Shown: positions 31,767 through 39,408 of the stretch, in pieces | Layout: every line of letters starts with the position of its first letter | Position numbering within the stretch: the first letter of the stretch is position 1 | From: a virus | Taxonomy: Duplodnaviria; Heunggongvirae; Uroviricota; Caudoviricetes | DNA length: 43,512 nt | Direction: 5' to 3' (one strand) | IMG/VR virus record: IMGVR_UViG_2563366800_000009 | Span: 1-43,512 of that record | Translations under genes and position numbers: made by a program | The notes under the pieces: generated by a model | The model's input: only the letters and a program-made list of their open reading frames with translations | Told to the model about the DNA's origin: nothing | The model's database searches: none

Positions 31767-32583
31767 CGTGTTCACCCTCACGAACTTTCAGGTAGGTATT
31801 ATCGTTAAGCAGGAAATCAAATCCCTTTTTGTGCCAGACAGTTCCGCGTTGATGGTTTGGGCGCTCTTCGAACATCCATCGGCAATTTTCGCCTACGTAG
31901 CTCAAATAATTTCTCCAGTCCTGCATCGTGAACCCATGCCCGTCAAGCTGGCGGGTTATCACTCCGGCTTTGCGCCAGAACGTTCGGATCTGGTTTTTAC
32001 GCTTGTCATTCAGTGCGCGGATTCTTGGCGCTTCAGGAAGGATTTCGTGGTAAGCATCGACAACATCCTGACAGCTGACGGAAGGTTTTTTCTTGTCAGA
32101 CTTTTTGTCTGCTGTGGCACTCTCTAATACGTCAGTATTAGAGATATTATTTATATTATTGTTTATGGACAACTGTTGGACAACCGTTGGACAATCTCCG
32201 CTGAGAGCCGCACCATTACTGGTGTTTGCGTTGGACAACTGTTGGACAACCGTTGGACAATTTTTTGCCTGAAAATCGTCATATTTAACGATTGTAAACA
32301 GGCTAAATTTCTTCCCCATCGAGCAAATATTAAGCATACCTTTCGACTCAAAAGTCCGTAATAAGCTCCGAACTTTGTTGTCGGGGATGAATGTTTCTCT
32401 GACCAGCGACGGGCGTCCAGTTATCATCTGACCGCGCTCAACAGTTATCGGACCGATATCCGTATTGACGACAGTAGATTCGTGATTAGCCTTGAGGATT
32501 AAGTGAAGCCAAAGATGTACTGCCTGAGAGTCCTTATAGAGCCTGCTGTCCATAAACTGGCGGTGTATAGAGACATACCCCAT
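31756..32583 (-). CDS. Replication initiator, lambda O/P22 gene 18-like, containing the origin iterons
   Basis: Iteron array lies inside the ORF; AGGAGG RBS before ATG at 32583; directly upstream of the helicase gene. Confidence 0.7.
   Translation of the reverse strand: MGYVSIHRQFMDSRLYKDSQAVHLWLHLILKANHESTVVNTDIGPITVERGQMITGRPSLVRETFIPDNKVRSLLRTFESKGMLNICSMGKKFSLFTIVKYDDFQAKNCPTVVQQLSNANTSNGAALSGDCPTVVQQLSINNNINNISNTDVLESATADKKSDKKKPSVSCQDVVDAYHEILPEAPRIRALNDKRKNQIRTFWRKAGVITRQLDGHGFTMQDWRNYLSYVGENCRWMFEERPNHQRGTVWHKKGFDFLLNDNTYLKVREGEHDDR
32165..32263. repeat. Phage replication origin iterons: two clusters of three 11-bp repeats TTGGACAAC(T/C)G, followed by an AT-rich segment
   Basis: Six tandem or near-tandem copies seen at 32165-32197 and 32231-32263. 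Confidence 0.75.
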
Positions 32584-33516: not shown

Positions 33517-34233
33517 ATGGAAAATAAAAAATCACTGACGACAGAACAGCTCGAAGACGCTAAGCGGCTTAAGGCTTTGTATGAGTCAAAAAAGAAAGAA
33601 TTGGGAATAACCCAATACTCAATCGCTGATGAACTGGGTATCACCCAAGGAGCGGTAGGGCATTATCTTAATGGCAGAAACGCGCTAAACGTTGAGGTTG
33701 CATCTGGTTTTGCACGATTGTTGCAAGTCTCAATTGCTGATTTTAGCCAGTCAATTGCTGCCAAGGTTGCAGAACAGGCAGAAAGCCTTAAGAGCGATGC
33801 CAACGTAAGGTATGCAGGGGAATACAGAGCAGGAAAGAGGTATCCGGTGTTAAGCAGTATCCAGGCTGGCTCGTGGTGTGAAGCATGCGAACCATACACC
33901 ATTAAAGACATAGATGTTTGGCTTGAGTCTGACGCGCATATTCAAGGTAATGCGTTTTGGCTTAAAGTGGAAGGTGATTCAATGACGGCACCGGTTGGGT
34001 TAAGCATTCCAGAGGGAACATTCGTTCTTTTCGATACCGGAAGGGAGGCGATCAACGGCAGCTTGGTCATAGCAAAACTTTCTGACTCTAACGAAGCAAC
34101 ATTCAAGAAGCTGATAATCGACGGCGGAAATAAATACCTCAAGGGACTTAATCCTGCATGGCCTCTCGTGCCAATCAATGGAAACTGCAAGATTATAGGC
34201 GTTGCAATTGAGACAAAACTAAGGCTGGTTTGA
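33517..34233 (+). CDS. cI: CI repressor (HTH N-terminal domain, S24-peptidase-like C-terminal domain)
   Basis: LTTEQLEDAKRLKALYESKKKELG and C-terminal LKVEGDSMTAP...TFKKL resemble lambda CI; divergent from cro. Confidence 0.9.
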   Translation: MENKKSLTTEQLEDAKRLKALYESKKKELGITQYSIADELGITQGAVGHYLNGRNALNVEVASGFARLLQVSIADFSQSIAAKVAEQAESLKSDANVRYAGEYRAGKRYPVLSSIQAGSWCEACEPYTIKDIDVWLESDAHIQGNAFWLKVEGDSMTAPVGLSIPEGTFVLFDTGREAINGSLVIAKLSDSNEATFKKLIIDGGNKYLKGLNPAWPLVPINGNCKIIGVAIETKLRLV

Positions 34234-34250
34234 TCACGCAAGGGGCGATT

Positions 34251-34619
34251 ATGGTTGGAACCGCTATAGCAAGCTTTTTTGGGATGTTGGCAATCTCGAC
34301 AATTTACGGCTTAGCGCATGCTTTTATTGCGAAATCTCTATCAGAAAAAATAAGCCAGGCTTGGGCGCATAGATCAGCTCGTTTCATGATTCTTGTGATC
34401 ATAGCAATACAAGGGATATCTGCATTTATCCTCTATGGATCAAGCTTATACCTATTGTATCAAGGCGCGACATTTACGCCTTACACCAGTGATTACGGAA
34501 CTCTATACGATGGTAGTGAAGACATCACTGTGGCTTGGATCGTCTTTGGTTTATCTATGGCCGTGTCTGTTGTAGCAGACATCATTAAGGTAATTCTCGT
34601 CTTAACCTTCGCTGACTAA
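34251..34619 (+). CDS. Small membrane protein (about 3 TM helices) directly downstream of cI at the rexAB-equivalent position
   Basis: AAGGGG RBS before ATG 34251, 18 bp after the cI stop; hydrophobic segments. Confidence 0.6.
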   Translation: MVGTAIASFFGMLAISTIYGLAHAFIAKSLSEKISQAWAHRSARFMILVIIAIQGISAFILYGSSLYLLYQGATFTPYTSDYGTLYDGSEDITVAWIVFGLSMAVSVVADIIKVILVLTFAD

Positions 34620-34750
34620 CCCATAATCCCGGCAGCAATAGCTATCGGGATCCACTTCACATATCCCGCATAAAAATCACTGAACAAGCAGACAGCGAAA
34701 AAATAAATATCCTTTGTATTCATTTGTTTATCATTATTTCATCAAAAATA

Positions 34751-34792
34751 AATACCTTGGGTATTTACACAATAAAATACCTACAGTATTCT
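34751..34792 (+). promoter_or_regulatory. oL/pL: operators AATACCTTGGGTATT (34751-34765) and AATACCTACAGTATT (34776-34790); -35 TTTACA (34764-34769), -10 TATTCT (34787-34792)
   Basis: Same half-sites and same 25-bp spacing as oR. Confidence 0.5.
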
Positions 34793-34838
34793 TTAGCCAT
34801 CAGCAGGACGCTGGAAGCCAAACGGAACAGATTGGCAG

Positions 34839-34879
34839 GCTCTTTAACATTGATGGGATTGTCCCGCCGAAATGCGGGA
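34839..34879 (+). promoter_or_regulatory. nutL site: boxA GCTCTTTAACA then boxB hairpin TCCCGCCGAAATGCGGGA
   Basis: Same boxA/boxB as nutR in opposite orientation, upstream of the N gene. Confidence 0.6.
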
Positions 34880-34986
34880 ACCAAAGAGTAGTTGGCTTTG
34901 GGGTGGCGTGAAGTGCAGCTGCACGACGGCAACCGGAAGATAAGCACCCGGCGCGTCACCGCCAAAGTCAATCATCGGAGGTCAAC

Positions 34987-35292
34987 ATGACAGTAGTCAT
35001 TACATATCTGGCTGACGATAACGCCAGAAATCGCCGCAGAGCACGCAGACAGGCTCAACGTGAACAGGCAATGCAAGAACAGCGATTGGCACGAAAAATT
35101 GCGCTAAAGCTCTCTGGTTGCGTCAGAGCAGATAAAGCAGCATCACTCGGAAGCCTTCGCTGCAAGAAGGCAGAAGAAGTCGAGCGTAAACAGAACCGTA
35201 TTTACTACCGCAAGCCACGCAGTGAAATGGGGGTGACTTGTGTTGGTCGCCAGAAAATGAAATCAGGCAGTAAGCTACTGTATGAGGGGTGA
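34987..35292 (+). CDS. N: Antitermination protein N
   Basis: Arg-rich motif NARNRRRARRQAQ near N-terminus; C-terminal RKQNRIYYRKPRSEMGVTCVGRQKMK resembles lambda N. Confidence 0.75.
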   Translation: MTVVITYLADDNARNRRRARRQAQREQAMQEQRLARKIALKLSGCVRADKAASLGSLRCKKAEEVERKQNRIYYRKPRSEMGVTCVGRQKMKSGSKLLYEG

Positions 35293-35295
35293 GAT

Positions 35296-35484
35296 ATGCA
35301 TAAATGTCAGTTCTGTGGATACATGTTTGAATCAAATGAAATGCAACGTATTTCGTTAAACCTTATCGGTAGGCCATACAACATTTGCCTAGGATGTAGC
35401 GAGAAATACAAAAACAAAGACATGTGGGACGACAATAAAAACGATATCGACTGGAATAAAGTGCCATGTATTGATGATAGTTAA
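35296..35484 (+). CDS. Hypothetical zinc-ribbon-like small protein (62 aa)
   Basis: CQFCG...CLGC motif; GAGGGGTGAG RBS. Confidence 0.5.
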   Translation: MHKCQFCGYMFESNEMQRISLNLIGRPYNICLGCSEKYKNKDMWDDNKNDIDWNKVPCIDDS

Positions 35485-35494
35485 AAATAATTAT

Positions 35495-35567
35495 GCCGCA
35501 TAGTCGGCCTTCTTTTGGCATAAACAACAGAATAAACACTGCACTGAATTATTTGAGGTGAGATATG
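35495..35567 (+). repeat. 73-bp direct repeat, copy 1 (ends with RBS and ATG of the downstream gene)
   Basis: Identical to 36021-36093. Confidence 0.85.
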
Positions 35568-36014
35568 GAAGAACAAGCAAACAAGATTCTCGTAGAACTA
35601 CTGCAAAAAGCCAGTAATGGAATAGACGCGGCTGTTTCATTTAGCCAGGCACAGATTCCTGATGTTGTTCATCAGTTGCTGCTATGGAATATGGTTGACA
35701 GTCTGATTAAAACATTAATGGCCATTCTAACAATCCCACTGGTTTTCTGGTTTATGAAGAAGCAGTGCCAAAGAGTTGAGACAGGTAAAATCGGTGATGA
35801 AGGATATTCATGGGAGAAAGGAAATCCCAAATACAGGCCGACAATGGTTTGGGATAGCAAAGGTGATATTAATCTTCTTATCATGCCATTGGTTGTAGTT
35901 TTGACTCTGTGGGGGATTTTTATTATTGGTGTAGTAACCAATATGACTTGGTTAAAAATTTGGCTGGCCCCAAAGCTTTACCTTATCGAATATGCAGCAT
36001 CATTGGTTAAGTAA
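35565..36014 (+). CDS. Membrane protein (2 TM helices) in the pL operon at the sieB-like position; candidate exclusion protein
   Basis: 149 aa; flanked by perfect 73-bp direct repeats; AT-rich. Confidence 0.6.
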   Translation: MEEQANKILVELLQKASNGIDAAVSFSQAQIPDVVHQLLLWNMVDSLIKTLMAILTIPLVFWFMKKQCQRVETGKIGDEGYSWEKGNPKYRPTMVWDSKGDINLLIMPLVVVLTLWGIFIIGVVTNMTWLKIWLAPKLYLIEYAASLVK

Positions 36015-36020
36015 TTTCAG

Positions 36021-36093
36021 GCCGCATAGTCGGCCTTCTTTTGGCATAAACAACAGAATAAACACTGCACTGAATTATTTGAGGTGAGATATG
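36021..36093 (+). repeat. 73-bp direct repeat, copy 2
   Basis: Identical to 35495-35567. Confidence 0.85.
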
Positions 36094-36561
36094 ACAAAAT
36101 CATGGAGCGTACCTTTTCCTGAATCAGAAACTGAACATGATGGAATGCCTGTTTTCTGGAGATTCCAAGCGACAGTTGAAGAAGATGGAATCAAAATATT
36201 CGCACTTCAATATATAGCTTTTCATCAGACAGAGCATTATGCATGGTTGGTTCCTGCGCATTGGATTGTTAATTTTAAACCAGCACCAAATCAGTGGTTA
36301 CAGGAATGGAAACAAAGGAGAAATAGATATGCAATTAAGAAAGTAGCAAAAAATGCAGAAAGATCTTTTGCGTTCCCGACGAAGAAACTTGCCATTGAAA
36401 GTTTATTGCGCCGGAAGAAATACCATTTGATGAGAATCAAACAAGATTTGGCTGTTGTATCAACTCTTGTTGATGGGATGAAGAATATTGATACATCAAC
36501 ACCAGATATTGAATATAACTTTGGACACAACCAAGAAACAGAAAATTGGGTGTTTTATTAG
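36091..36561 (+). CDS. Hypothetical 156-aa protein
   Basis: Start supplied by repeat copy 2; no recognisable motif. Confidence 0.55.
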   Translation: MTKSWSVPFPESETEHDGMPVFWRFQATVEEDGIKIFALQYIAFHQTEHYAWLVPAHWIVNFKPAPNQWLQEWKQRRNRYAIKKVAKNAERSFAFPTKKLAIESLLRRKKYHLMRIKQDLAVVSTLVDGMKNIDTSTPDIEYNFGHNQETENWVFY

Positions 36562-36704
36562 TATGAATAAGCACTGTGTATTCATTCCAACGAGTGAATA
36601 CACGGAGCAATGTCGCTCGTAACTAAACAGGAGCCGACTTGTTCTGATTATTGGAAATCTTCTTTGCCCTCCGATGTGAGGGCGATTTTTTTGATGGAGG
36701 ATAT

Positions 36705-37673
36705 ATGAGTGAAGTAACAGATTTAGTTGTTATTGAAAAAGCAAATGCAATGACTGTATTTCAGTCTGCCGACCAGATTGAAGAAATCCTTCAAAAGGTT
36801 GAACGTGAAGTTATGTCCTTTGTGCCTGATATCACAACGGCAAAGGGCAGAAAGGAGATCGCTTCTCTGGCGTATAAAGTTGCGCAGACGAAAACATATC
36901 TCGATGGTCTTGGAAAAGACCTTGTTGCTGAACTGAAGGAAATTCCAAAGCTAATTGATGCCAACCGCAAGACAGTGCGTGATCGCCTTGATGAGCTGAA
37001 ATCCAAGGCACGCCAGCCTCTTACTGATTATGAGGAGGAACAGGCACGGATTAAAGCCGAAGAAGAAGCTAAGGCAGCAGCTGAAGCTCTCGCAAAGCAA
37101 ATTGAGTCTGACCATGAAATAGCTATTTTGATGGATCGCGAATTTGACCGCCAAAGAGAAGAGGCAAGACTCAAAGCGGAGCAGGAAAAGCGAGAGCATG
37201 AAGAACGCTTAAAAAGAGAAGCTGAAGAGAAAGCCAGAGCAGAAGCCGAAGCAAAGGCAAAAGCCGAAATTGAAGCAGCAGCAAGGCGAGAAGCAGAAGC
37301 TAAGGCCGCAGCGGAACGTGCAGAGCGTGAACGCATTGAAGCCGAGCAACGAGCACAGCGCGAAGCAAAAGAGGCAGCAGAACGAGCTGAAAGAGAAAAG
37401 CAGGCGGCAATTGAAGCAGAACGCCGAAAAGCACAGGAGGAGGCTGAACGAATCCGGCGCGAGGCTGAAGCAAAAGAGCAAGCCAGAATAGCAGAAGAAA
37501 AAAGAATCAAGGACGAAGAAGAGCGTAGAGCAAAGGATAAAGCTCACCGGAAAGAAGTAAATAACAAAATACTTGCTGACCTTATCAAGGTTGGCGCATC
37601 AGAAGATGTTGCTAAAAATATCATAACAGCCATCGTAAAAGGCAAAGTATTCGCAACAAAAATAACCTACTAA
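36705..37673 (+). CDS. Coiled-coil protein with long Ala/Glu/Lys/Arg-rich low-complexity region (TolA-like repeats)
   Basis: GGAGG RBS before ATG 36705; about 150 aa of EAKAKAE/AERAERE-type repeats. Confidence 0.55.
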   Translation: MSEVTDLVVIEKANAMTVFQSADQIEEILQKVEREVMSFVPDITTAKGRKEIASLAYKVAQTKTYLDGLGKDLVAELKEIPKLIDANRKTVRDRLDELKSKARQPLTDYEEEQARIKAEEEAKAAAEALAKQIESDHEIAILMDREFDRQREEARLKAEQEKREHEERLKREAEEKARAEAEAKAKAEIEAAARREAEAKAAAERAERERIEAEQRAQREAKEAAERAEREKQAAIEAERRKAQEEAERIRREAEAKEQARIAEEKRIKDEEERRAKDKAHRKEVNNKILADLIKVGASEDVAKNIITAIVKGKVFATKITY

Positions 37674-37844: not shown

Positions 37845-37950
37845 AACACTTATGGCTATTCAGACTAAATTCACTATCGCCACTTTTATTGGCGATGAAA
37901 AGATGTTTCGTGAGGCCGTCGAAGCCTACAGAAAATGGAGGTCTAAATGA
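37837..37950 (+). CDS. Small protein (37 aa) immediately after cIII; Kil-like by position
   Basis: Overlaps cIII stop; called by synteny only. Confidence 0.4.
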   Translation: MDKTLMAIQTKFTIATFIGDEKMFREAVEAYRKWRSK

Positions 37951-38135
37951 TTCCGGTAGAGCTGGCGAAAACTCCAGAGTTAAGTCGATTAAAAAGAGAA
38001 TATCACATTGCTGAGGCTCGTTACTGGCGTAAAGCGGGAGATAAATCAAAGAAACAACTTTGTTTATGGCAAGCGCAAAGAGAGCGCATGAATGAGCGCG
38101 AATTTCTTTCCGCCCCATCCGAATTACCATTCTGA
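37947..38135 (+). CDS. Hypothetical 62-aa protein
   Basis: ATGA overlap with upstream ORF. Confidence 0.4.
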   Translation: MIPVELAKTPELSRLKREYHIAEARYWRKAGDKSKKQLCLWQAQRERMNEREFLSAPSELPF

Positions 38136-38143
38136 GGTGAATT

Positions 38144-38824
38144 ATGGGAACTGCGACATTAATACTCGGTGAGTCTGGCACCGGAAAATCAACCAGCATG
38201 AGAAATATCAATCCAGAGGAAGCAATACTTATAAAACCAATAGGCAAGCCGCTACCATTTAAATCAAAAGAATGGCTGGCATGGGATGCCAGAGCAAAAA
38301 AAGGAACCGTAGTTACCACTGACAAATGGGACGTAATAGTTTCCGTAATTAAGCGTGCTCACGAATACGGGAAAAGAATCGTTATTGTTGATGACTTCCA
38401 GTATGTGATGAGCAATGAGTTTATGCGCCGCTCAGAAGAAAAATCGTTTGATAAATTTACTGAGATAGGCCGCCACGCATGGGAGGTGATTAAGGCTGCA
38501 CAGGATGCACCTGATGACCTGAGAGTCTATTTTCTTGCGCACACCGAAGAAACCCCTATGGGGCGCGTGAAAATGAAAACTATCGGCAAAATGCTGGACG
38601 AGAAAATCACTGTCGAAGGCATGTTTACTATAGTTCTTCGCACTCTTACCCGCGATGACCAGTTCTTTTTCACCACGAAAAACAACGGTGCAGACACTGT
38701 TAAATCCCCAATGGGAATGTTTGATTCCAATGAGATTGATAACGATCTCTCTTTCGTCGATGCCACTGTTTGTGATTACTACGGCATCAATAATGTTCAT
38801 CAAATTAAGGAAAACGCCGCATGA
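38144..38824 (+). CDS. P-loop ATPase, RecA-core-like (Sak4-type recombination ATPase)
   Basis: Walker A GESGTGKST and Walker B IVIVDD. Confidence 0.65.
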   Translation: MGTATLILGESGTGKSTSMRNINPEEAILIKPIGKPLPFKSKEWLAWDARAKKGTVVTTDKWDVIVSVIKRAHEYGKRIVIVDDFQYVMSNEFMRRSEEKSFDKFTEIGRHAWEVIKAAQDAPDDLRVYFLAHTEETPMGRVKMKTIGKMLDEKITVEGMFTIVLRTLTRDDQFFFTTKNNGADTVKSPMGMFDSNEIDNDLSFVDATVCDYYGINNVHQIKENAA

Positions 38825-39408
38825 GCAACGTGATTTTTACTTATAACGAAGAAGCAGCACTGACCGCAGGGCAAGGTGGTTTTATTAACGAAACTGGCGC
38901 TCATATCATTACCATTACTGAAGCAGAACTAAAGCAATCAGAAAAAGGAGCCAAATTTATTGAGTTTTCTGGCGAATCCGACGACGGACGTAAAATCCAA
39001 TATCTTAGCGTCTGTGTTCAGAAAAATGACGGAACGGAAAACAAATTTGGCGCAAATGTCGTTCACGCCATGATGGGGTGTGCCGGGATTGGACAATTAA
39101 CGCAGCATATGGTTTCCGCCAGTAAATTTGTTGCACCTGAATTTCATGGAAAGAAAATCGGGTTAGTGCTTCAGAAAGTATTAACCACAAACAAAAAGAC
39201 TGGCGCAGACAGCTACCAGATGGAAATACGCATCCCGTTTATTGCACAAACAGGTAAAACCCTTAAAGAAAAGGCAGAAGGCAAGCAACCAGAAACTATC
39301 GCCAACATGGTTGCCAATCTCAAAGATAAAGACAATCGCTCTAAAAACGTAAGCCAGAATCATGCAGATGATTATGGTTACAGCCAGAACGATTACCCTC
39401 CTTTCTGA
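38821..39408 (+). CDS. Putative ssDNA-binding protein partner of the ATPase; acidic C-terminal tail ending DYPPF
   Basis: C-terminal tail resembles the SSB DDDIPF-type tip; coupled to the ATPase gene. Confidence 0.45.
   Translation: MSNVIFTYNEEAALTAGQGGFINETGAHIITITEAELKQSEKGAKFIEFSGESDDGRKIQYLSVCVQKNDGTENKFGANVVHAMMGCAGIGQLTQHMVSASKFVAPEFHGKKIGLVLQKVLTTNKKTGADSYQMEIRIPFIAQTGKTLKEKAEGKQPETIANMVANLKDKDNRSKNVSQNHADDYGYSQNDYPPF

Follow-up and report, generated by a model that had tools for sequence, protein, structure and literature searches.

Two neighboring small genes in the pL operon of the virus IMGVR_UViG_2563366800_000009 (Caudoviricetes) are each preceded by the same 73-bp unit. Comparison of the 43,512-nucleotide (nt) stretch of this virus, here called the window, with related phages and prophages leads us to conclude, with a probability of about 80%, that the unit is the standard inter-cassette linker of a variable slot behind the antiterminator gene N in the pL operon of Escherichia coli-type lambdoid prophages. 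The unit adjoins unrelated genes in different relatives, mosaic breakpoints cluster at its sub-boundaries, and near-identical relatives differ by the presence or absence of a gene that it flanks. One linker stands between many cassettes in the phage gene pool, and co-resident phages or prophages would recombine at the linker or at sub-segments of it, swapping, adding, or removing whole genes with reading frames and expression signals unharmed.

Identity and Anatomy of the Repeated Unit

The segments 35495–35567 and 36021–36093 match at 73 of 73 nt by string comparison, and the match ends at both edges. They lie within a wider repeat pair of 88 nt and 92% identity (35480–35567 and 36006–36093; repeat search) with a start-to-start spacing of 526 bp. 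Apart from origin-type iterons and one 34-nt pair, the window contains no other long dispersed repeat, and a 23-nt core of the unit, allowing up to three mismatches, occurs in it twice as compared with 0.00 times expected from 100 shuffles. At its 3′ end each 73-mer carries GAGGTGAGATATG with the start codon of the gene that follows. Copy 1 supplies the ATG for the open reading frame of a 149-amino acid (aa) protein (35565–36014), and copy 2 that for the reading frame of a 156-aa protein (36091–36561). An earlier note on this DNA had described two identical segments at these coordinates, each ending with the ribosome-binding site (RBS) and ATG of the following gene and together flanking a protein with two transmembrane (TM) segments; all of this was borne out, the hydrophobic stretches of the 149-aa product lying at approximately residues 43–65 and 100–130.

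The unit begins shortly behind a stop codon and extends to the ATG that follows. Three parts make it up, namely a hairpin followed by a T-run (positions 1–22), a spacer (23–52), and a translation-initiation region (53–73). The last of these, AATTATTTGAGGTGAGATATG, combines a long Shine–Dalgarno match with a start codon, and within it TTATTTGAGGTGAGATATG is the predicted strong Shine–Dalgarno sequence and start codon of the downstream cassette. In copy 2 the hairpin GGCCGCATAGTCGGCC, followed by TTCTTTT, has a terminator-like score (terminator scan match at 36019–36036), whereas in copy 1 the first G is missing and a 4-bp stem of −5.0 kcal/mol is left. A third translation-initiation copy precedes the 62-aa gene upstream; together with the 3′ tail of N it forms a diverged leader belonging to the same repeat family (D4), with 72–76% identity to the other two.

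Across relatives, wide sharing is limited to positions 1–37 or 1–52, that is, the hairpin and spacer, and positions 53–73 are common to a subset of cassettes. Two linker alleles were distinguished, t-type (CCTTTATTTTTGG) and c-type (CCTTCTTTTGG). The t-type follows 27 of 28 149-aa genes and the c-type is tied to the 62-aa and 87-aa genes (6/6 instances for the 62-aa gene); copy 2 in the window is c-type. The usual leader of the 149-aa gene, GGCAGCAAACCACTTATTTGAGGTGATATATG, has ~19 nt in common with the 3′ end of the linker and is also found before the 156-aa gene in Shiga toxin (Stx)-type phages. A second, shorter leader, GGCAGCAAACCACTTATTTGAGGTGA(G/T)ATATG, is fused to the N tail. In Stx-type phages it is the 156-aa gene that comes after this leader, in other phages the 149-aa gene; in a Cronobacter prophage the leader directly follows the hairpin and T-run. 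The long and short leaders read as length variants of one linker.

Distribution and Alternative Neighbors

The core of the unit was matched in 408 of 5,426 complete E. coli genomes, with at least 80% of the 73-mer covered in 47 of these, and in 26 deposited phages including CUS-3, IME10, HK544, and mEp213. At least 120 IMG/VR contigs carry the 23-nt core, one per contig. As a literal string, the linker sequence gave one irrelevant match only in 8 million papers.

Neighboring genes were counted at 124 loci (120 IMG/VR contigs and four E. coli genome loci). On its upstream side the hairpin meets the 3′ ends of no fewer than 12 unrelated genes, the most frequent being an Nmad5-family gene (227 aa, ~30 loci), a 66-aa gene (~29), the 149-aa gene (~28), and an 83-aa gene (12), followed by genes of 62, 87, 80, 156, 107, 228, 60, and 55 aa. 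Downstream there are at least four alternatives, comprising a conserved hairpin region at most loci, the 156-aa gene, the 149-aa gene, and a Y8K6-family gene. At most loci position 52 (GCACTG) runs directly into TGTATTCATTCCAACGAGTGAATACACGG..., which corresponds to the window from 36577 onward, 3′ of the 156-aa gene, and this continuity between the linker and the region closing the slot was seen in more than 100 loci; in a minority the linker leads instead to the RBS and 156-aa gene. Because most loci run uninterrupted across GCACTG, the 156-aa gene is an insert at this join. Elsewhere the linker is kept to position 37 only and is followed by the RBS of the Y8K6-family gene.

The cargo is equally variable in its surroundings. 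The exact 149-aa protein occurs in at least six gene contexts, preceded by a 74-aa gene, an N36-type N tail, or the 62-aa gene, and followed by Y8K6, the 322-aa gene, the 156-aa gene, or 82-aa and 56-aa genes. In other genomes the gene of the identical 62-aa protein is followed by the 156-aa gene, a Y8K6-family gene, DUF7446, or a 319-aa gene. Linkers on both sides of a cassette were observed at 10 of 158 loci, for instance as linker–156-aa–linker(37)–Y8K6 in L007, L045, L145, and L146. The earlier note had proposed looking in related prophages for the unit as a junction between different cargo genes, and its cassette reading withstood the search; the unit stands beside at least 12 upstream and several downstream genes, and the 149-aa gene is not a conserved core gene, being accessory and present or absent between near-identical relatives.

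Breakpoints and Natural Variants

Breakpoints were taken from the ends of 333 high-identity BLAST high-scoring segment pairs between the window and 137 loci. They cluster at 35290 (the end of the N-like gene, which forms the left border of the variable slot), at 35490 and 36010–36020 (linker position 1), at 35540–35560 (RBS part), at 36050 (position 37), at 36070 (position 52), at 36570 (the GCACTG join, 111 ends), and at 36690–36700 (past a strong terminator, ~100 ends). With clusters at this many coordinates, the junctions are spread over several sub-boundaries of the unit rather than confined to a single site.

This spread bears on whether the linker could be the site of an integron-like cassette system with a dedicated site-specific recombinase. 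Such a system would account for promoter-less single-gene cassettes in series, separated by a repeated element with an imperfect inverted repeat, but we consider it highly improbable since breakpoints fall at no fewer than five unit positions (1, ~17–20, 37, 52, and 73) with no single crossover point. Moreover, the gene calls between cI and the recombination module of the examined loci include no integrase, the slot is bordered by N, cIII, kil, and recombination genes, as is usual in lambdoid phages, and the junction at the start of the 149-aa gene is accounted for by ~19 nt of plain homology.

Two natural variants, L138 and L143, have the gene order 62-aa–linker–156-aa–322-aa and are equivalent to the window minus 35568–36093, with 99.8% and 99.7% identity over ~2,040 bp spanning the joint. 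The junction of 62-aa gene, 73-nt linker, and 149-aa gene recurs in L125, L126, L137, and L141 with differing right sides. In L126 a 37-nt t-type linker and then Y8K6 follow, and identity to the window is 100% in the 149-aa gene and in 36566–36704; in L137 a 52-nt t-type linker is followed by the closing region. No complete E. coli genome contained the 62-aa–linker–149-aa junction as a contiguous stretch, and every occurrence was in a draft assembly or an IMG/VR contig. Precise loss and amplification of the flanked gene had been predicted from the direct repeats; loss has its natural counterparts in L138 and L143, whereas no amplified form was seen. A perfect 1,351-bp tandem of N–62-aa–linker–156-aa in L140 (GCA_000351345.1, KB732598.1, 1123–3814) was set aside as a scaffolding artifact on account of a run of Ns between the copies.

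A different kind of junction was observed in L126 (reverse strand, 330–440) and L125 (12527–12633), where the first ~36 nt of the 149-aa gene are fused without a frame to the 3′ tail of N. The fusion point is an ACTAC(Y)GCAA microhomology, and the gene fragment has been left upstream of a full N-tail–62-aa–linker–149-aa block. We read the fusion as a scar left by microhomology-mediated recombination in this slot.

Transcription Signals and the Closing Region

One and the same position in the linker is taken by either of two unrelated hairpins, both with a T-run behind them. Behind the 149-aa homologues of Salmonella, Citrobacter, and Pantoea are differing predicted hairpin and T-run terminators, and a similar one is present in Cronobacter. 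Since unrelated hairpins with T-runs are found in place, hairpins stand behind the homologues, and copy 2 was matched in the terminator scan, we predict that the 5′ part of the linker acts as an intrinsic terminator ending the upstream cassette.

A consensus scan of 34200–37000 revealed no promoter-like site in or near either linker copy, the sole site being pL, and manual reading of the linker gave at most 7 of 12 consensus matches. Own promoters for the 149-aa and 156-aa genes were likewise not found by this simple scan, the reach of which does not extend to weak or non-sigma-70 promoters. In lambda, N-modified polymerase from pL passes terminators. As such a polymerase would read through the terminators between cassettes, we infer that N-antiterminated read-through from pL drives these small, AT-rich, promoter-less accessory genes, which would make them early lytic or induction genes unless promoters escaped detection.

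The slot is closed by a conserved non-coding region with the GCACTG join at 36571–36576, a 14-bp hairpin at ~36574–36605, and a strong intrinsic terminator at 36664–36692. Its predicted fold has an energy of −50.6 kcal/mol (z = −4.95 vs. shuffles), and it may serve in termination or processing in the manner of tL, or give rise to a processed small RNA. An Rfam scan of 34500–37000 gave no match at E ≤ 1. The block (~140 nt) is kept in more than 100 related loci between genes that vary on both sides.

A rival explanation is that the linker is conserved mainly as a functional RNA or transcription element of one of these kinds, its presence at gene joints being incidental. Positions 1–52 are contiguous with the ~130-nt structured region and its final strong terminator, the whole is retained between variable genes, and terminators are present behind the 149-aa gene in four genera, with differing hairpin sequences. 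We nevertheless consider this explanation unlikely. Breakpoints inside the block, at positions 37 and 52, mean that it is not kept intact, no Rfam family or nearby promoter-like site accompanies it, and function as an RNA and use in recombination can coexist.

Origin of the Two Copies

The full arrangement with two 73-bp copies was found, among all collected loci and genomes, only in the window and in NCBI assembly GCA_000408625.1 (scaffold KE137202.1), which is 100% identical to the window across 6,450 bp. This rarity, together with the 100% identity of the copies across 73 nt, would suit a recent duplication within this prophage by slippage or unequal sister exchange, with perfect identity as its date. 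Several observations make such an origin very unlikely. Each junction exists alone in other genomes, and both parental forms, 62-aa–linker–156-aa and 62-aa–linker–149-aa, were found in relatives. The left flanks of the copies (ATTAT/GCCG for copy 1 and TTCAG/GCCG for copy 2) follow their respective upstream genes, and unequal exchange would have doubled the gene too, yet a tandem duplication of the 149-aa gene was not seen. Nor can perfect identity serve as a clock: the 73-mer allele recurs without change where it stands as a single copy in independent settings (L007, L045, L103, L138, L143, L145, and L146), and recent copying is not needed to explain it. Of the two implications that the earlier note drew from the identity, the portable linker agrees with the alternative neighbors and the recent duplication is superfluous.

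That the second copy is an assembly artifact has a precedent in the gapped tandem of L140 and is otherwise scarcely credible, given that the window has no Ns, 73 bp is shorter than usual read lengths, and the genes beside the two repeats differ. In addition, four other assemblies or contigs have the left junction, and many have the right one.

Recombination between linkers, the origin that we favor, would require two crossovers. The first, in the ~19 nt of shared RBS region, would have joined the 149-aa gene to the linker that follows the 62-aa gene. The second would have occurred in the hairpin, between the linker of the 149-aa gene and the c-type linker of a 62-aa–linker–156-aa phage; the c-type character of copy 2 behind a 149-aa gene places this crossover in the 17–18 nt hairpin. 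The outcome would be a c-type linker and the 156-aa gene downstream, with one linker allele on both sides of the 149-aa gene. The direct repeats would then be a by-product, one that once more allows the 526 bp to be deleted, perhaps in circular form. The same product would be reached by another route if an excised circle of the 149-aa gene and linker were inserted into a linker. Phage recombination systems tolerate short or diverged homology (PMC2327257), and the enzymes may be phage single-strand annealing recombinases (Sak4 here; RecT, Erf, or Rad52-like proteins in relatives) or RecA. The phage's own candidates for short-homology recombination are its Sak4-like protein and single-strand binding protein (SSB).

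Several points weigh against the linker interpretation. Recombination at the linker is deduced from sequence comparison, and breakpoints at gene ends are also expected from random illegitimate recombination combined with selection for intact genes, the Hendrix model of illegitimate recombination filtered by selection as it is summarized in PMC3233612. The linker is not better conserved than the cassettes (93–100% vs. 97–100%), so that its conservation could reflect recent common ancestry of the gene pool and not selection. Many hairpin variants carry uncompensated mismatches, which together with the 4-bp stem of copy 1 make terminator activity uncertain. Finally, the two-crossover order and circle insertion are indistinguishable in their product.

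Cargo Proteins

The three cassettes have GC contents of 35.4%, 39.3%, and 36.5%, compared with 47.8% for the window and 45–50% for cI, N, and the 322-aa gene. Searches of Pfam, NCBIfam, and PADLOC with the 62-, 149-, 156-, 322-, and 129-aa proteins of the region gave chance-level matches only, and the PHROGs families of the cassette proteins are annotated as function unknown. Members of the 149-aa family have a conserved N-terminal helix, two hydrophobic segments variable in sequence, and an invariant C-terminal WLKIWLAPKLYLIEYA motif, with homologues across the Enterobacterales down to ~57% identity. AlphaFold2 models built with family alignments were of low confidence, with a predicted local distance difference test (pLDDT) score of 67.6 for the 149-aa protein, in which the hydrophobic stretches are modeled as helices, and 59.5 for the 156-aa protein, which makes the latter model unreliable. 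A Foldseek search of the 149-aa model (pLDDT 67.6) against the BFVD viral structures returned nothing below E = 1.

The earlier note had called this protein sieB-like by position. SieB of lambda and P22 (PF14163) is likewise a small protein of the membrane whose gene lies near N in the pL operon, and the position after N holds. The resemblance does not extend to the protein itself, as the 149-aa protein had no PF14163 match at E ≤ 0.1 and no structural match, and a true SieB stands beside the homologue in Salmonella; by sequence, it is not a SieB homologue. In these Salmonella loci (L158–L160) the homologue adjoins the PF14163 gene on the opposite strand, and in Pantoea (L164–L166) a homologue directly follows a lysis cassette of holin, lysozyme, and Rz/Rz1. 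The contrast between the two placements suggests that the 149-aa gene moves between early and late operons, always with a predicted terminator behind it.

The 156-aa protein is listed in 18,239 blocks of an assembly index, including kinase-bearing Stx-type prophages. With more than 18,000 blocks listing it, the 156-aa gene is among the commonest uncharacterized early genes of E. coli prophages. In five Stx-phage-like loci (L148–L151 and L157) N is immediately followed by the gene of the exact 156-aa protein, and a eukaryotic-type Ser/Thr kinase gene lies downstream of the repressor region.

Gene Context of the Locus

The setting is a lambdoid immunity and pL region with cII and cro on the minus strand and cI, the N-like gene, and the cassettes on the plus strand (table 1). 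From left to right the order is cI, the 129-aa gene, the pL-like promoter, the N-like gene, the 62-aa, 149-aa, 156-aa, and 322-aa genes, cIII, kil, and a Sak4-like/SSB module.

Table 1. Features of the post-N slot and its surroundings, in window coordinates
Feature	Coordinates	Strand	Remarks
cI	33517–34233	+	
pL-like promoter	34764–34792		promoter scan
N-like antiterminator gene, 101 aa	34987–35292	+	PHROG 271, E = 7e-36; weak Pfam N_peptide match
Third, diverged translation-initiation copy, TATGAGGGGTGAGATATG	35281–35298	+	RBS and ATG for the 62-aa gene
Cassette 1, 62-aa Cys-rich protein	35296–35484	+	PHROG 19863 (function unknown); 35% GC
Linker copy 1	35495–35567	+	c-type allele; repeat search, string comparison
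Copy 1 hairpin and T-run	35495–35516	+	GCCG-CATAGT-CGGC then TTCTTTT
Copy 1 spacer, GGCATAAACAACAGAATAAACACTGCACTG	35517–35546	+	conserved; unit positions 23–52
Copy 1 translation-initiation region, AATTATTTGAGGTGAGATATG	35547–35567	+	unit positions 53–73
Cassette 2, 149-aa protein	35565–36014	+	PHROG 3054; two predicted TM segments; 39% GC
Copy 2 hairpin, AGGCCG-CATAGT-CGGCCT and TCTTTT	36019–36046	+	6-bp stem including the preceding AG; fold
Linker copy 2	36021–36093	+	same as copy 1; gives RBS and ATG to the 156-aa gene
Cassette 3, 156-aa protein	36091–36561	+	PHROG 1636; 36.5% GC
Conserved structured non-coding region	36562–36704	+	closes the slot
Sak4-like single-strand annealing protein and SSB	38144–39408	+	PHROG 2872, E = 4e-108; PHROG 743, E = 6e-67

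In the recombination module (37947–39408) a 62-aa protein of PHROG 1723, annotated as recombinase, is encoded ahead of the Sak4-like protein and SSB. Relatives with the same linker have RecT, Erf, or Rad52-like modules in place of Sak4. At 34230–34619, overlapping the end of cI, lies the gene of the hydrophobic 129-aa protein (PHROG 6534, function unknown), in the position of rexA/rexB in lambda; the product may be a prophage-expressed membrane protein. Between pL and N (34841–34885), GGCTCTTTAACA is followed by a small hairpin, CCCGC-CGAAAT-GCGGG, and the segment, read by eye, resembles a boxA/boxB nutL site. At 32166–32272, five copies of TGGACAAC(C/T)GT at 11-bp spacing form two clusters, an iteron-like array of the kind that a lambdoid replication origin in or near the O-type gene would be expected to have.

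Relation to Known Systems and Significance

According to PMC3233612 and PMC2327257, the boundary-sequence model explains lambdoid mosaicism by homologous recombination at short conserved sequences between genes, and goes back to Susskind and Botstein (1978) and to the "bsq" elements of HK620 (Clark et al. 2001). The linker shares with these elements its short, conserved, non-coding nature, its unrelated flanking genes, and the coincidence of mosaic junctions with it. The GenBank record of CUS-3 annotates "boundary sequence" features elsewhere in the same region, whereas the first 52 nt of the linker are present in that phage without such an annotation. Features that set the linker apart are a readable terminator and translation-initiation anatomy and the ability to occur serially, as a small cassette array. 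We regard it as fitting the known model, a clear but expected example of gene swapping and no new kind of element.

The closest likeness outside the lambdoid phages is to the promoter-early stem-loop (PeSL) elements of T4-type phages, in which a stop codon is followed by a stem-loop terminator and then by a Shine–Dalgarno sequence and start codon (Arbiol et al. 2010, PMC2839356). In near-identical phages the ORFans beside a PeSL show up as indels, and the excision of mini-circles has been demonstrated for these elements (PMC2839356). Both elements are intergenic motifs of ~70–100 bp with a terminator stem-loop, associated with small non-essential genes in a hyperplastic region, where the flanked genes are present or absent. 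Both also lead to the prediction that recombination between flanking copies yields a deletion and a mini-circle. The two differ in phage lineage and sequence, and the scan found no sigma-70 promoter in the lambdoid linker, so that expression would need pL and N antitermination.

Morons in the classical sense (Juhala et al. 2000; Hendrix et al. 2000; see PMC3594210 for a review and PMC2629481 for P22-like phages) carry a promoter of their own and are transcribed autonomously. The cassettes resemble them in being AT-rich accessory genes, present or absent between conserved neighbors, with a predicted terminator behind. For the 149-aa and 156-aa genes the simple consensus scan revealed no promoter of their own, and, unlike in morons, several genes use one standard linker.

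It is possible, although we would put it at somewhat less than an even chance, that the post-N slot as a whole is an array of promoter-less single-gene cassettes, for which recombination at linkers, including excision and re-insertion of circles by annealing proteins, is the main route of gene traffic. If so, the slot would be the lambdoid counterpart of the T4 PeSL system, and the linker would be kept partly for evolvability. The locus also provides a compact and well-populated test case in the debate on whether mosaicism arises by homologous exchange at linkers or by random illegitimate recombination followed by selection, with one linker of ~70 nt, a dozen or more interchangeable genes, and natural variants that differ by one cassette and one linker. 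In practical terms, the linker points to a hot spot of accessory genes of unknown function in E. coli prophages, Stx phages with the 156-aa gene among them, and can thus be used as an anchor for mining these genes.

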